Origin: Treponemataceae bacterium
GTDB lineage: Bacteria > Spirochaetota > Spirochaetia > Treponematales > Rectinemataceae
Length of the DNA stretch: 64,000 bases
Assembly (NCBI GenBank): GCA_963667725.2
Contig: CAXXHO010000005.1
Span: forward strand, 96,001 to 160,000
Direction: 5' to 3'
In this document: positions 33,001 through 39,000 of the stretch, one piece after another
Layout of the letters: every line of letters begins with the position of its first letter
How positions within the stretch are numbered: the stretch's first letter is position 1
Made by a program: the position numbers

Positions 33001-36000
33001 GGAAGCCCGAGCCCAAGGCCTCCATCGTGAAGCTTGTGGATGGCGTGCAGGAACAGCTCTTCGGCCAGCCCATGAAGATCATGGCGATCCACGCAGGCCT
33101 GGAATGCGGCCTCATCGGCGAGAAATATCCCGGCATGGAGATGGCCTCCATCGGCCCCGATATGTGGGATGTGCACACACCCGATGAGCACGTGAGCATT
33201 CCCTCTGTGGGCAATTTCTGGAAGCTCCTGACAGCCGTGCTCGAGAAGATCTGATCTTCAACTTGTAAAGATCCACCACCAAGACGCCAAGAACACCGAG
33301 ACGCACCAAGAGAATGATCCAGCTTGGTGACGTTCGAGTTCTTCGTGCCTTGGTGGTGGATCTTTTTTGTTCGGTTTTCGTGATCGCTGTGATGCCCATC
33401 ATCCCTTGATTTTTAGCCGTTCTTGCGGCTTGACGGGCAGGGCCTCGAGGCGGGATCCTGCGGCGGATGTTCCTCTGCACAGAAGGGTCCCGATGCTTGA
33501 GCGCCTGGATTACGAAGCCGTAGGTCTCATCTCCGGTCTGGAGGTGCATCAGCAGCTGCTCACCAAACACAAGCTGTTCTGCCGCTGCCCTGCGGGCCTC
33601 TACACCGAGACGCACGATGGCGAGGTACTGCGGCACATGCGGCCCACGCTCTCGGAACTGGGCGAGTACGACGGCACGGCCCTCATGGAGTTCAAGACGA
33701 AGAAGGAGATCATCTACCTCCTGAACCACCTGAACGTCTGTACTTACGAGATGGACGACACGCCGCCCTTTCTCGTGAATCAGGAGGCCATCGACGCCTC
33801 CATCGAGCTCTGCCTGATGATGGGCATGGACATCATCGACGAGATCCACATCGCCCGAAAACAGTACTTGGACGGCTCCATTCCTACGGGCTTCCAGCGC
33901 ACGGCCATCATCGGCGTGAATGGCACCATCCCCTTTCATGGTCGTCCCCTCACCATCACCCATGTGAGCGTGGAGGAGGACTCCTGCCGCGAGGTGCGGG
34001 ACAAAGGCCACCAGATCGTGTGGCGCACGGATCGGCTGGGCATGCCGCTCACGGAGACCGTGACCGGACCCGAGCTGCGCACGCCCCAGGAGGTGCGCGA
34101 TGCGATTCTGCTTTGCGGCATGACCGCCCGCTCCACCGGGCGCGTGCGCACGGGCATCGGCGCCAGTCGTCAGGACGTGAACGTCAGTGTGCGCGGCGGG
34201 GATCGCGTGGAGATCAAGGGCGTGCCTCGCGCAGGCTACGCCGTGAAGCTGGTACACAACGAGGGCGTGCGGCAACACAACCTGCTCAAGCTGCGTGATG
34301 AACTGCATCGCCGCGGGCTCTCGACACGTGAATCCATCCGGGTGCAAGCCTTCGATGTCTCCGATATCTGCGCGGACGTGGATCTAGGCTTTCTGCGGCG
34401 CTCCATGGGGGCGGGCGGCAAGGTCTTCGCGGTGAAGGTGGAAGGCGTGGCGGGGCTCGCCCAGCATCCCACTCAGCCCGATACGACTTTCCTGGATGAA
34501 CTGAGCGGTCGCATCCGGGTCATCGCCTGCCTGGACGAGGCGCCCATCGTGCTGAGCGGGGCCATGCTGCCGGAGTTCCCCAACAAGCACCGCCTGTTGG
34601 AGCGGCTTCGCAAGCGGGTTCACCTCACCGAGAACGATGATTTCTTTTTGGTGTTTGGCCCCGAGGAGGATTGCCGTACGGCGGCCAACGAGATCCGCCT
34701 GCGCTTCGCCGATGCTACCCAGGGCGTGCCCAAGGAAACCCGCCAGGCGCTTACGGGGGGCTTCACGACCTTCGAGCGCATCCTGCCAGGGCCGGACCGC
34801 ATGTATCCGGATACGGATTCCCCGCCCACCCGCGTGACCGAAGATCGCGTGGCCTCCATCAAGGCTCGACTGCGGCCCGCGCCCTGGGAACGCATCGAAC
34901 GCTACATGTCCTGGCGGGTGCCCGAAGAGACCTGCCATTACCTCATCCGCCGAGGCGGTGCAGAGATCCTGGATGCCGTCATCGAAAAGACCGGCGTGGA
35001 TGGCCTGGTGGCGGCCATGGTGATCGGTCAGCACAGCAAGGCGCTGAAGCGCGCAGGCATTCCGGTGGAGCGCCTGGGCACTGCCGAATGGGTGCAGATC
35101 TTCGATCTCTTCACCGATGGGCGCATTCCCCGGGAAACCATCCCGTTGGTGGCGACGGGTGTGGCCCGGGATGGGCTCAGTGCCCAGGCGGCGGCAGCAG
35201 CAGCGGGTGTAGCCGTGCAGCCCCGGGAGCGGTGGCTGTCCACGGTGGATCAGTTGACCATGGAGGGCTATCAGGGCGAGAAGGTGGATACCCAAGACAA
35301 GCGTCTGCGCTTCCTGGCGGGCCGGGCCATGGAACAACTGCTGGGCAAGGCTCCCGCCAAAGAAGTTGCGGAGTACCTGCGAAGCAAGCTCGTGGAGGTG
35401 TCCCGATGAGCGCCCCTGTGATCCCCATCAGCGAGCGCACGGATCGCTTCCAGGGCTATCGTGGCCTGGCCAAGGCCGCGCTGGAGAAATTCGAGATCGG
35501 CGTGTGGAGCGAAGTCGAGATCGTGAATGACGAGGGCTCCGCCTTCGTGGGCGTCATCCTGCCCCGCAGCGAGACCGCCGACGATCTGCACGTGGTGATC
35601 AAGCTCTTCAACGGCTACAACGTGGGCATCCACGCCAATCGCATCGCCTCCGCCAAGGAGCACGGCTACAAGAAGGCGGTCTACAAGATTCCCGAACAGG
35701 CCTTCCCCTTCGATCCCAAGAAGAAGAACGTCACGCTGCTGGGCACGGGCGGCACTATCGCCAGCCGCCTGGACTACCGCACCGGCGCGGTGATTCCGGC
35801 CTTTACGCCCGGCGAGTTGTACGGCGCTGTGCCGGAGCTGGCCGACATCGCCAATCTCACCACCAAGAAGCTCTTCGGCGTCTTCTCCGAAAACATGGGC
35901 CCCGAGCAGTACAAGGCCCTGGCCATCGCCATTGGCGAGGAGATCGAGAAGGGCGTGGATGGCATCGTCATCGGCCACGGCACCGACACCATGAGCCACA

Positions 36001-39000
36001 CGGGCGCCATCCTCAGCTTCATGGTGCAGGACAGTCCCGTGCCCATCGTGATCGTGGGCAGTCAGCGCAGCTCAGACCGGCCTTCCTCTGATGCGGCTCT
36101 GAACTTGATGAATGCGGTTCGCACCGCCGCCGAATGCGACATCGCCGAGGTGATGCTCTGCATGTTTGGTCCCACCTCGGATAACTACGATCTGCTGCAC
36201 CGGGGCACCCGCTGCCGCAAGATGCACAGCAGCTATCGCAGCACCTTCCGCACCATTGGCGCCACGCCCCTTGCCACCGTGAGTCGCTACCCCAAGGAAG
36301 TAGGCGGCAGCCACTTCACCTACATCTCCGAGGACATCCGCAAGCGGGACCGGACGCGAAAGCCCATCATCAACCCCTCCTTCGAGGAGAAGGTGACGAT
36401 CCAGTACTACTATCCCAACTTCAACCCCGACATCATTGATGGTCTCTCGGCCATGGGCTATCGCGGCCTGGTGATGGCGGGCACAGGGTTGGGCCATGTG
36501 AACAAGCCGCTCTATCCGGCCATCAAACGGGCCATCCAGAAGGGCATGACCGTGGTGATGTGCGTCCAGACGCTCTGGGGCTTCGCCCAGATGTACGTCT
36601 ACGACACGGGCCGCGATCTGTTGGACCTGGGTATCATTCCCCTCGACAACATGCTGCCCGAGACCGCCTACATGAAGCTGGCCTGGGTGCTGGGACAGAC
36701 TGATGATCCCAAGAAAATTCGGGAAATGATGACCACGGCCATCAATCATGAGATCGAGCAGCGGGAGCCTCACAACGGCTATCTCATCCTTCAGGGTGGT
36801 CTGCCCGAAGTGGACGCCTTCGTGGAGAAGCACTGGAAGTAATCGTTGTGCTGCAGACTGATCAGGGGCCTTCCAGCACTTCCTGAACGGCCTGCAGGAG
36901 ATCGGCCCGGGATACGGGCTTGCGCAGAACCTTGGCGGCTCCCAGGCGCTGGGCGGGCCTCAGGAGGTCCATCCCGATCCCGGGGCCGCCTCCAGAAATG
37001 GCGATCACGCGCATTTCCGGGTATTGGGTTCGCACCTCCATGATGAGCTCGATCCCATCTTTTTCAGGCATGAAGATGTCGGTGATCAGCACATCGAAGG
37101 TGCCAGCCTGCAGACATTTCATGGCGGCCAGACCGTTGGGGGCCGTCACAACCTGGTGCCCGTTGCCCTCCAGGATTTCGGTCAAAAGCGTGCGGATCGC
37201 GAGGTTGTCATCGGCGACCAGGAAGCGAGGCATCAGGTTCTCCCGGTTTGTGCTTCATCGAGGGTTTGGCGCAGGGCGTGGGCGAGGCTGGGGAGGGGCA
37301 GAGGTTTCTTCAGCAGGTTGGCGAAGCCCTGTTCTCGGGCCTTGGCTTCGTCGAGTTCTTCGCTGAAGCCTGTCATGAGCAGGACCGGGAATCCGGGGCG
37401 GAGTTTCCAGATACCAGTGCCCAGGTCTTGACCCGTGAGGCCGGGCATCGAGAAGTCGGTCATCACCAGATCGTAGCTCTCTGGGTTCGCCTGAAAGGCG
37501 CTCAGGGCCTCTTGGCTGTCCTGGAAGACCGAGACGCGGTACCCCAGCAGGCCGAGGGCCTCGCCGAGCATCTGGCCGATGGGCCTTTCGTCATCCACGA
37601 CGAGGATGCGCTCGTGGCCCCTGGCTGCTTTCTCTTGGCGAAAAGGGCTGGTGGGCTCCGGCCTCAGCGCGATGGGCAAGTACACGGTGAAGGTGCTTCC
37701 GCGTCCCACTTCGCTCTCCAGCTGGATGCCGCCGTCGCAGCCCGTGACGATTCCGTGCACGATGGAAAGGCCGAGGCCGGTGCCCTCTCCAATTCGTTTG
37801 GTCGTGAAGAAGGGTAGAAAGACTTGCTTCTGGGTCTCTGGGCTCATGCCGCAGCCCGTATCCGAGACGCTCAGACGGATGTAGTCTCCGGGAGGAAGAT
37901 CACCTCCGATGGCCTGCACAGGCACCGTAGGGCACACCCGATCAAGGCGCACACCGAGCCTTCCACCGGATTCGCGCATGGCGTGGTACCCGTTGGTGCA
38001 CAGGTTCATTACCACCTGATGGATCTGACTGGGATCCACCAGCACTGGACCACACTGCTCATCCACATGGGCCTCGATGGAGATGTTCGCAGGGATGGCG
38101 GCCCGCATGAGTTTGAGGCACTCCTTCACCAGGGGGTGCAGTTCCACGGCCTGCTTGTCCTGCTCCATCTGGCGGCCGAACAACAGGATCTGGCTCACCA
38201 GATCCGCCGCGCGACGACCGGCGCCATGAATTTCTTCCAGGTAGCTGGTGAGTTTCGGCTGATCCGTTGTGACGAGATCCTGGGCCAATTCTGCGAACCC
38301 CAGGATCGGCATGAGGAGATTGTTGAAGTCGTGGGCGATGCCGCCGGCAAGCACGCCGATGGCTTCCATCCTCTGGGAGTGACGCAGCTGGTTCTCCAGT
38401 TCCGCTTCCCGGGTCACATCCCGGGAGGTCAGCACCACGTATTGGACGGCGCCCTCATCGTCCCGCACGGGGGAGAGCGTGGTGTCGGTATGCCCCGTGG
38501 TGCCATCCCCACGACGGTGGCTCATGCGCCCAGTGGAGGATTGCCCTGCGACGACCTCTTGCCAGCGCTCACGATAGAGCTTCTCGTCGCTCTCGCCAAA
38601 ATTGAGGGTGGCGATCCTCTGGCCGTGGATCATGGGCTGGGGCAGGCCCAGTAGTTTTTCGGTGGCGGGGTTGGCGTAGAGCACCGTTCCTTCGATGTCT
38701 GTGACCAGGATGGAATCGGAGGCCTGTTCGATGGCGGTGGAGAGGCGCTTCAGCTCGGCCTCGGCCTGCTTGATGGAGGTGATATCGCGGAAGATGCCCA
38801 GGGCCCCCAGAAACTGCCCCTGATCATCCGTGTGGGGGGTCACTGTGACCAGCACCTGCCGACGCTCGCCGTTGGGCCGAATGAAGCCCATTTCGTAGGT
38901 GCTGTTGCTCCCGATTTTTCGTTTCAGGGTCTCGTCCTGGAGCTTCTGGAAGTCCCGGGCATCGGTGAATTCGGAAAGACAGCGGCCCAGGAGTTCGGCG

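Follow-up and report, generated by a model that had tools for sequence, protein, structure and literature searches.

A bacterial GatDE pair in a Holophaga-like DNA fragment and its near-complementary distribution with GatCAB

A gatE gene and a gatD gene that share a 4-base ATGA form an intact operon at positions 33493–36842 of the window, i.e., the whole 64,000-nucleotide stretch of DNA that was analysed, and to judge from their sequences they probably encode an active bacterial-type GatDE of a Holophaga-like acidobacterium, a Glu-tRNA(Gln) amidotransferase that would replace or back up GatCAB. The window copy is unexceptional within a bacterial branch of GatDE that is large and under-described; it is a clean example that adds little else, and its value is in the clade-level pattern: GatDE occurs in about 1 in 6 of the sampled Acidobacteriota and about 1 in 11 of the sampled Planctomycetota species genomes, and tends to occupy the place of GatCAB. 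Reviews up to 2022, in their available portions, treat GatDE as restricted to archaea and as an archaeal signature protein (PMC8762117, PMC9499178), the term “GatDE” has 0 occurrences in a 2014 survey of the bacterial Gln-tRNA machinery (PMC3927822), and literature searches found no published work on bacterial GatDE. If confirmed, the pattern would alter the accepted map of Gln-tRNA synthesis and proofreading in bacteria, provide a natural experiment in the switching of tRNA identity (A1:U72 to U1:A72), and bear on the use of GatDE as a domain marker and on its placement in LUCA.

The initial annotation had called full-length GatE and GatD proteins at this locus (Table 1), and the family assignments bear this out. 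GatE scored 494.1 bits against the NCBIfam equivalog NF003107 (cut-off 456) and 432.2 against TIGR00134 (cut-off 319.55), with residues 4–636 covered, and contains the Pfam domains GatB_N (14–453) and GatB_Yqey (493–633); GatD scored 480.3 bits against NF003217 (cut-off 310) and 475.5 against TIGR02153 (cut-off 324), and contains GatD_N (PF18195), Asparaginase (PF00710) and Asparaginase_C (PF17763). The closest solved structures are archaeal for both subunits and align over the full length, these being 1zq1_C and 2d6f_C for GatE (residues 1–637 align with Pyrococcus abyssi GatE 1zq1_C at E 4.7e-100) and 2d6f_A (E 1.7e-109) and 1zq1_A for GatD. The GatD motifs TGGT (114–117), HGTDT (191–195) and RKMH (271–274) are invariant in 76/76 sequences, as are 173 of the 478 GatD columns, and we take the Thr, Thr-Asp and Lys motifs to hold the catalytic residues of an asparaginase-type glutaminase. 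Eight core motifs of GatE are kept in all 57 full-length bacterial GatE sequences, and the motifs of both subunits also align with 2d6f_A and 1zq1_C. Two other assignments were rejected: the best GatB model reached 134.7 bits with GatE (cut-off 338) and covered core residues 92–273 only, which does not fit the GatB of GatCAB, and a free type I asparaginase does not fit a GatD in which GatD_N is present, the GatD equivalogs outscore TIGR00519 (357 bits) and gatE is coupled. Among the best 80 of 564 related loci, gatE adjoins gatD in 75 and is its sole neighbour conserved across phyla.

Table 1. Features of the gatE–gatD locus, in window coordinates
Feature	Position	Strand	Length	Description
Hairpin, long and stable, followed by a U-run	33267..33372	+		Separates gatE from the M20 peptidase gene upstream
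Untranslated stretch 5′ of gatE	33373..33492	+		Presumed promoter region
gatE	33493..35409	+	638 aa	Predicted tRNA-dependent kinase/transamidase subunit: GatB/GatE core, inserted domain, YqeY-like tail
ATGA overlap	35406..35409	+		gatE stop/gatD start, read from the sequence
gatD	35406..36842	+	478 aa	Predicted asparaginase-type glutaminase subunit

The overlap of the two genes suggests that their translation is coupled. The upstream hairpin (RNA folding gives −55.4 kcal/mol and z = −8.1; none of 200 shuffled sequences is as stable) has no match to an Rfam family and resembles a terminator, which would insulate the operon; it was overlooked by a simple terminator scan because the loop limit of that scan is 8 bases. 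A promoter scan of positions 33100–37000 returned 0 sigma-70-like sites.

The DNA itself belongs to a Holophaga-like stretch that was mis-joined into the assembly of another organism, as had been proposed at the outset. The tetranucleotide make-up of the contig (C5) shows an abrupt shift near C5:190 kb, the window shares synteny with the chromosome of a Holophaga sp. MAG (L001) at a DNA identity of 87–89%, and GatD was found in 0/120 other genomes of the order to which the labelled organism is assigned. The genes around the pair in the window include bacterial housekeeping genes (mreBCD, PBP2, rodA and ligA). Compared with L001, gatE has a dN/dS of 0.017 and gatD one of 0.012, at a dS of 0.31–0.38, the corresponding values being 0.005 for mreB, 0.048 for the M20 peptidase, 0.10 for mreC and 0.17 for a histidine kinase; gatE and gatD are under purifying selection of housekeeping grade.

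The existence of a distinct bacterial GatDE lineage, already suspected in the initial annotation, was supported by two trees in which the bacterial GatD loci form one clade (support 100 with FastTree, 197 rows; SH-aLRT 100 with IQ-TREE, 80 rows), on a long stem of 0.41–0.55 changes per site that sets them apart from the other, presumably archaeal, GatD representatives. The closest named relative of the clade is the GatD of an Asgard archaeon (Candidatus Sigynarchaeota, P0006), which falls into the sister group (support 95 to 97); of the members of that group, it alone bears the name of an organism. The proposal that this lineage moves between phyla was likewise upheld, i.e., the GatD of G003, located on a 1.65 Mb contig of a genome assigned to a different phylum from the proxy genome G001, nests within the Acidobacteriota beside a Holophagaceae sequence (support 99, IQ-TREE), and GatD is 82–87% identical versus about 60% for GlnRS. 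The supposed breadth of the spread stands in part: 564 related genome stretches were recovered (the best 80 at 63–99% identity), and the best 120 protein clusters are 81–98% identical, but some of the phylum labels are wrong, since the loci labelled “Deltaproteobacteria” (L003) and “Bacillota” (L006) share the M20-peptidase synteny of the Holophagaceae, a family within which the surroundings of gatE–gatD are kept. The named relatives all come from MAGs, with no isolate among the best 120 clusters, and several related loci lie on bacterial contigs of megabase scale (L001, L042, L044, L052 and L068).

The distribution of GatD was compared with those of GatB and GlnRS in genomes sampled at a requested completeness of at least 90% (per-genome values not reported), “GatB absent” referring to one marker gene. 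GatD was found in 52/301 Acidobacteriota, of which 17 have both GatB and GlnRS, 3 GatB only, 32 GlnRS only and 0 neither; the genomes lacking GatD comprise 127 with both, 81 with GatB only, 36 with GlnRS only and 5 with neither, where the 127 and 81 become 125 and 80 without three unpublished genomes (G155, G058 and G033, all with GatB and no GatD). GatB is thus absent from 32/52 acidobacterial genomes with GatD versus 41/249 without it, and from 5/14 versus 6/137 of the Planctomycetota (14/151 with GatD; Fisher p = 0.001, shared ancestry being ignored). The pair had been described as occurring in phyla already equipped with GlnRS and GatCAB, and the GlnRS half of this description holds, GlnRS being present in 49 of the 52 Acidobacteriota (the remaining 3 have GatB), in 5/5 Planctomycetota with GatD and without GatB, and over cut-off in all five of the genomes G001–G005; the GatCAB half does not hold in general, GatB being absent from the 32 genomes mentioned and from 6/6 Aminicenantes-type genomes. 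The premise of redundancy survives in a narrower form: GatCAB is not generally alongside, but none of the 52 acidobacterial and none of the 14 planctomycetal genomes with GatD lacks both GlnRS and GatB, and because these genomes always have a route to Gln-tRNA besides GatDE, a role in translation is not forced. Among 17 genomes sharing the high-scoring AsnRS type of G001, all of which have GlnRS and AsnRS, 12 have GatDE only, 4 GatCAB only, 1 both and 0 neither. The distributions of GatDE and GatCAB come close to being complementary, and the simplest explanation is a shared job. The 36 Acidobacteriota with GlnRS and neither GatD nor GatB mean that an amidotransferase is not universally needed by acidobacteria with GlnRS.

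Where neighbouring genes link GatDE to other functions, they are glnS, tRNA-Gln and glnA, and not asnS, aspS or tRNA-Asn. Three Planctomycetota genomes have glnS–gatE–gatD operons in which glnS (NF011291, 1092 bits) is fused to YqeY, the genes of one (L160) being joined by 4-base overlaps read from the sequence; among the best 80 of the 564 loci, i.e., those closest to the window, none has a glnS at a distance of up to 8 kb from gatD. In L007 and L008 a tRNA-Gln(CUG) gene with a U1:A72 pair directly adjoins gatE, 61–69 nt upstream. Both core tRNA-Gln genes of G001 (UUG and CUG) carry U1:A72, as does its tRNA-Asn, and none of its 82 tRNAs is a tRNA-Gln with A1:U72. The same genome has odd extra tRNAs, one of which, a tRNA-Gln(CUG) located in a tRNA array, shows a C1.U72 mismatch. 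According to the accessible text of PMC2330236, archaeal GatDE recognises A1:U72, whereas bacterial GatCAB reads U1:A72 on both of its substrates, tRNA-Gln and tRNA-Asn. Recognition must therefore have changed if the bacterial enzyme acts on such a tRNA-Gln, and specificity could have changed too.

In the reading that we favor, glutamine or asparagine would be the source from which GatD frees ammonia, and GatE would first phosphorylate the glutamate on tRNA-Gln and then amidate it to yield Gln-tRNA(Gln), this substrate being predicted. The bacterial GatDE would have descended from an archaeal one, its closest named relative being Asgard, and would later have spread through bacterial phyla as a self-contained pair of genes, presumably adapting to the bacterial U1:A72 tRNA-Gln. 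It would serve as an alternative to GatCAB in cells with GlnRS, often replacing it, without being the only source of Gln-tRNA, and its most likely job would be the back-up or clean-up of Glu-tRNA(Gln) made by a putative GluRS that still mischarges tRNA-Gln. The initial annotation had put forward, as its boldest reading, a role other than housekeeping Gln-tRNA synthesis; the context points to tRNA-Gln instead, through the glnS–gatE–gatD operons, the adjacent tRNA-Gln(CUG) and the complementarity with GatCAB. A more far-reaching version, which we consider doubtful, has GatDE as a full replacement of GatCAB that switched its pair recognition from A1:U72 to U1:A72 on entering bacteria and thereby gained Asp-tRNA(Asn) beside Glu-tRNA(Gln). 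This would explain why at least one kind of amidotransferase is found in 17/17 Holophaga-type genomes despite GlnRS and AsnRS, and, if true, would turn a supposed archaeal signature into a mainstream bacterial enzyme of translation fidelity in several phyla.

The related possibility that bacterial GatDE is an Asp-tRNA(Asn) or dual Asp/Glu amidotransferase, retained, like the GatCAB of Thermus, Deinococcus and Bdellovibrio, for tRNA-dependent asparagine synthesis, is unlikely. It draws on the replacement of GatCAB by GatDE where GlnRS and AsnRS are already present, on the U1:A72 pair common to tRNA-Gln and tRNA-Asn of G001, and on GatCAB as a precedent for an amidotransferase used in asparagine synthesis (PMC4206432, in its accessible part). 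An AsnB-type synthetase is over cut-off in 4/5 genomes with GatD and without GatB versus 5/5 with neither (a comparison blurred by paralogues), so that no asparagine gap is evident; moreover, the neighbour links all concern glutamine, and archaeal GatDE is described, in the available portion of PMC2330236, as not using Asp-tRNA(Asn). That GatDE might have a new role outside ordinary translation, for example by amidating another aminoacyl-tRNA or a tRNA-like molecule in the service of a metabolite or of the cell envelope, or in sensing the supply of glutamine, is quite improbable: it would suit an enzyme never required as the sole route to Gln-tRNA, the extreme conservation of GatD and the odd extra tRNAs of G001, but among the best 80 of 564 loci gatD has no conserved neighbours of biosynthetic or envelope function, such links as there are lead to the glutamine-tRNA machinery, and the complementarity with GatCAB is best fitted by a shared job. 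A functionless, neutral recent passenger or an artefact of archaeal contamination is exceedingly improbable, and is already contradicted by the present data. The position of the window in a mis-joined fragment, the 6.26% contamination of its assembly and the MAG-only origin of the named relatives might raise this suspicion; against it stand the megabase-scale bacterial contigs, the bacterial flanks, the low dN/dS at appreciable dS, the Holophagaceae synteny and a clade of its own on a long stem.

Compared with the archaeal GatDE of Methanothermobacter thermautotrophicus (2D6F) and P. abyssi (1ZQ1), the window pair has the same subunits, domain order, length, core motifs and gene adjacency, and both proteins align full-length (E 1e-93 to 1e-110), whereas the window-type host is a bacterium with GlnRS and U1:A72 rather than A1:U72 tRNA-Gln, and the clade is a separate one on a long stem. 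The indirect system of archaea combines an archaeal GluRS with GatDE and A1:U72 and has no GlnRS, in contrast to G001 with GlnRS and U1:A72; only bacterial-type GluRS was matched, with no strong archaeal-type match in searches with the GlnRS models. The Asgard P0006 GatD is a member of the group sister to the bacterial clade, but is only 47% identical to the window GatD. Bacterial GatCAB resembles GatDE in that GatE is a paralogue of GatB and in its chemistry, in which a glutaminase supplies a tRNA-dependent kinase/transamidase, and differs in that the glutaminase of GatDE is the asparaginase-type GatD and not the amidase-type GatA, and in that there is no GatC; GatCAB serves both Gln and Asn, whereas GatDE is known for Gln only, and in archaea only. 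There is also a parallel in gene content with Thermus, Deinococcus and Bdellovibrio, in which GlnRS, AsnRS and a tRNA-dependent amidotransferase coexist, and the GlnRS–YqeY fusion described for Deinococcus in the accessible part of PMC2330236 is of the type that heads the planctomycetal operons. In those bacteria, however, the amidotransferase is GatCAB and is used for asparagine synthesis (per the available text of PMC4206432), while here it is GatDE, with homologues of asparagine synthetase mostly present.

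The pair, in which the gatE stop codon and the gatD start codon overlap (ATGA), was assigned to GatDE, the two-protein Glu-tRNA(Gln) amidotransferase, by family models and by alignment. GatE scored 494.1 bits (cut-off 456) and 432.2 bits (319.55) and GatD 480.3 (310) and 475.5 (324), which places each protein above both NCBIfam equivalog thresholds for its family, and models of GatB, used here as the marker for the usual bacterial enzyme GatCAB, scored far under their cut-offs on the window's GatE. The Pfam domains are GatB_N and GatB_Yqey in GatE, and GatD_N, Asparaginase and Asparaginase_C in GatD; both proteins can be aligned over their whole length to the archaeal enzymes of known structure (1ZQ1, 2D6F). 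All 76 GatD sequences compared share the motifs TGGT, HGTDT and RKMH unchanged, and eight core motifs of GatE are kept in 57 of 57.

Features in and around the gatE-gatD pair, with dN/dS for the window against G001 (Holophaga sp. MAG)
Feature	Window position	Strand	Description	dN/dS
Toxin-antitoxin-like genes	26914-28390		PIN-domain protein, MazF/PemK-like toxin, small upstream ORF	
M20 peptidase			upstream neighbour of gatE	0.048
tRNA-Ser(CGA), PilZ protein, DUF2891 protein			upstream neighbours of gatE	
Hairpin + U-run	33267-33372		between M20 peptidase gene and gatE; long, near-perfect; -55.4 kcal/mol, z = -8.1	
gatE	33493-35409	+	GatE, 638 aa	0.017
gatD	35406-36842	+	GatD, 478 aa	0.012
Response regulator, PAS histidine kinase			downstream of gatD; response regulator convergent	0.17 (histidine kinase)
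Glutaredoxin			downstream, next	
mreB			downstream, followed by mreC	0.005
mreC			followed by PBP2, rodA, then ligA	0.10
LigA	46475-49063		NAD-dependent DNA ligase, 862 aa; C-terminal RNase_T-type exonuclease domain, residues 679-835	

The flanking genes are ordinary bacterial ones. The blastn alignment of the window to the syntenic Holophaga stretch breaks at 33283-33345, within the hairpin 5′ of gatE, for which an Rfam search returned no family and a chance-level miRNA as its sole match, and a promoter scan found no sigma-70-like site around the two genes. Parts of gatE and gatD are covered at ≥95% identity by three contigs (X5, X6 and X8) from activated sludge or wastewater RNA libraries; because these cover the flanks and the opposite-strand genes equally, and DNA may be present in the libraries, transcription of the pair is not demonstrated by them.

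The assembly (GCA_963667725.2), labelled as a Treponemataceae bacterium, is chimeric. In tetranucleotide make-up, contig C5 from position 1 to ~190 kb and the last ~37 kb of contig C4 (~100000-137000) differ from the remaining genome; the Holophaga-like composition ends abruptly near 190 kb of C5, and the window lies entirely within it. The contamination rating of the assembly is 6.26%. The window is syntenic with the 3.5 Mb chromosome of G001, with 87-89% DNA identity over 14.6 kb, the rRNA of the bulk genome is only 79% identical to that of G001, and the 120 other genomes examined from the labelled order yielded no GatD. Composition, synteny, the rRNA gap and the absence from that order therefore identify the owner as a Holophaga-like acidobacterium, for which G001 is the best available genome proxy, and bear out the warning in the initial annotation that the pair is not spirochaetal but sits in a mis-joined fragment. 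No close counterpart of the glnS and gatB loci of G001 was found in the assembly, and co-occurrence scored within it is meaningless, as it includes just ~227 kb of the Holophaga-like genome. Elsewhere on C5, two stretches (~390000-550000 and ~710000-730000) have ~33-40% G+C against ~58% in the rest of the contig and are possible further cases of foreign or wrongly joined DNA.

Relatives of the window's GatD are numerous. A genome scan returned 564 stretches, of which the best 80 are 63-99% identical, some of them lying on Acidobacteriota, Planctomycetia and Aminicenantes contigs 1.65-3.5 Mb long; among proteins, a search gave at least 8000 scored candidates, all with E ≤ 1e-50, the best 120 being 81-98% identical, with the named proteins among them all from MAGs. 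A FastTree phylogeny of 197 rows (the window's GatD plus 75 loci and 121 representatives, after exclusion of five of the 80 loci for short or interrupted matches and, from 150 representatives, of those under 400 aa) recovered all bacterial loci as a single clade (support 100, stem 0.41), and an IQ-TREE analysis of 80 hand-picked rows under LG+C20+F+G4 agreed (SH-aLRT 100, stem 0.55). The sister group of this clade (support 95 to 97) includes a GatD from Candidatus Sigynarchaeota, and a Thermococcus GatD is more distant. The caution voiced earlier about phylum labels was well placed, as two loci labelled Deltaproteobacteria (L003) and Bacillota (L006) show Holophagaceae-type synteny. The proposed transfer between phyla is nevertheless real: the GatD of G003, a genome placed outside the phylum of G001, falls within Acidobacteriota beside a Holophagaceae sequence (support 99), and GatD identity reaches 82-87% where that of GlnRS is ~60%. 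Two low-GC contigs labelled Thermoplasmatota also carry GatD nested in the bacterial clade: in L071 (1264-6197) gatE and gatD are divergent and glnA follows gatE, and in L079 a TnpB gene lies ahead of gatD; the genes around them (glnA, TnpB, an aldolase and a Fic-like gene) are compatible with either an archaeal or a bacterial contig. One 943-aa protein from the representatives search (P0004) has the N-terminal core of GatE (GatB_N, 24-304) and, starting at residue 511, a complete GatD; this could be a genuine fusion or result from a frameshift artefact.

When the neighbours were clustered for the 80 loci most similar to the window, gatE alone accompanied gatD from phylum to phylum (75 of 80 loci), which makes gatE-gatD a self-contained unit. 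In five GatDE-bearing genomes of four labelled phyla (G001-G005), GlnRS and AsnRS were each over cut-off in all five and GatB in four. The exception for GatB, the Aminicenantes MAG G004, has its GlnRS split over two reading frames (locus L085, ~2513-2541), perhaps as a pseudogene or through a long-read error; five further Aminicenantes-type genomes gave GlnRS in four and GatB in none. In four genomes of this type (G004, G007, G008 and G010), gltX and glnS share a strand, with gltX ~1.3 kb upstream.

Co-occurrence of GatD, GatB and GlnRS in 301 Acidobacteriota species genomes (sample centred on G001, picked for carrying the pair; completeness of ≥90% is the requested value, actual completeness not being reported)
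GatD	GatB	GlnRS	Genomes
+	+	+	17
+	+	-	3
+	-	+	32
+	-	-	0
-	+	+	127
-	+	-	81
-	-	+	36
-	-	-	5

Three unpublished genomes (G155, G058 and G033) are all GatD- GatB+, and without them the -++ and -+- classes number 125 and 80. GatD is thus carried by 52 of the 301 Acidobacteriota, and by 14 of 151 genomes in a Planctomycetota sample. GatB is missing from 32 of 52 GatD+ against 41 of 249 GatD- Acidobacteriota (odds ratio 0.12) and from 5 of 14 against 6 of 137 Planctomycetota (p = 0.001), by Fisher tests that ignore shared ancestry and with absence of GatCAB scored from GatB alone. GlnRS is present in 49 of 52 GatD+ against 163 of 249 GatD- Acidobacteriota and in all five Planctomycetota that have GatD but lack GatB. 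GatDE is thus enriched in genomes without GatB, in both phyla, and in Acidobacteriota with GlnRS; the empty +/-/- class means, therefore, that GatDE is never the sole route to Gln-tRNA in the Acidobacteriota sampled. AsnRS is found in 296 of the 301, among them all 52 with GatD. Within the 17 genomes that share the high-scoring AsnRS type of G001, taken as an approximate stand-in for the Holophaga lineage, 12 have GatDE alone, four GatCAB alone, one (G001) both and none neither, and all 17 have GlnRS and AsnRS.

Links to tRNA-Gln were seen at several loci. In three of the five GatB-lacking, GatD-bearing Planctomycetota (G379, G412 and G427), glnS immediately precedes gatE-gatD in the same orientation, and in L160 (1667-7790), the locus of G412, the genes share 4 bases at each junction; the GlnRS encoded there is of the Deinococcus-like GlnRS/YqeY fusion type (NF011291, 1092.6 bits, cut-off 681), and Pfam no longer detects the YqeY tail on the GatE of such an operon. 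At the 80 loci nearest the window in sequence, no glnS was found within 8 kb of gatD. In two of these loci, gatE is preceded, at a distance of 61-69 nt, by a same-strand canonical tRNA-Gln(CUG) that has U1:A72 (L007 5861-5935 and L008 84-158); a terminator-like hairpin lies between the two. The accessible parts of PMC2330236 and PMC9499178 give A1:U72 and the D-loop as the recognition elements of archaeal GatDE, and U1:A72 as that of bacterial GatCAB. G001 has U1:A72 in both core tRNA-Gln genes and in tRNA-Asn, G1 in tRNA-Glu and tRNA-Asp, and no tRNA-Gln with A1:U72 among its 82 tRNA genes; bacterial GatDE must therefore read its tRNA otherwise than the archaeal enzyme, and this leaves room for an altered specificity. 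The same chromosome holds an array of ~30 tRNA genes in 7 kb (L137, C1 ~2943700-2950900), several of them low-scoring, with a tRNA-Gln(CUG) that carries a C1.U72 mismatch.

The simplest account, and probably the right one, is that bacterial GatDE is an active Glu-tRNA(Gln) amidotransferase which, in bacteria that have GlnRS, takes the place of GatCAB or serves as its back-up. GluRS would still mischarge tRNA-Gln, and the resulting Glu-tRNA(Gln) would probably be dealt with by GatDE; the GluRS discrimination rule (the equivalent of T. thermophilus Arg358) is phylum-specific according to the available text of PMC3927822. The main rival, a GatDE shifted to asparagine synthesis on tRNA or acting with dual specificity, is unlikely: the neighbour links of gatE-gatD give it no backing, and AsnB-type genes occur in 4 of 5 GatD+GatB- against 5 of 5 GatD-GatB- genomes, which is no contrast, in a small sample blurred by paralogues. 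The boldest idea of the initial annotation, a role outside translation, seems more doubtful still. The evidence contradicts a reading of the pair as neutral passenger or artefact, which is highly improbable: the low dN/dS of gatE and gatD (at dS of 0.31-0.38 against G001) amounts to constraint of housekeeping grade and speaks against a redundant passenger in decay.

The literature search found no paper reporting bacterial GatDE; the available text of two 2022 reviews calls it exclusively archaeal, and it is absent from that of a 2014 bacterial survey (PMC3927822). Public annotation pipelines already call the bacterial proteins GatD and GatE, and the window's pair is an unexceptional member of a large bacterial branch overlooked by the searchable literature. 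To this the present analysis adds the two-phylum co-occurrence table, the complementarity with GatCAB and the glnS-gatE-gatD operons, together with the selection figures, the Asgard-affiliated sister group and the tRNA identity mismatch.
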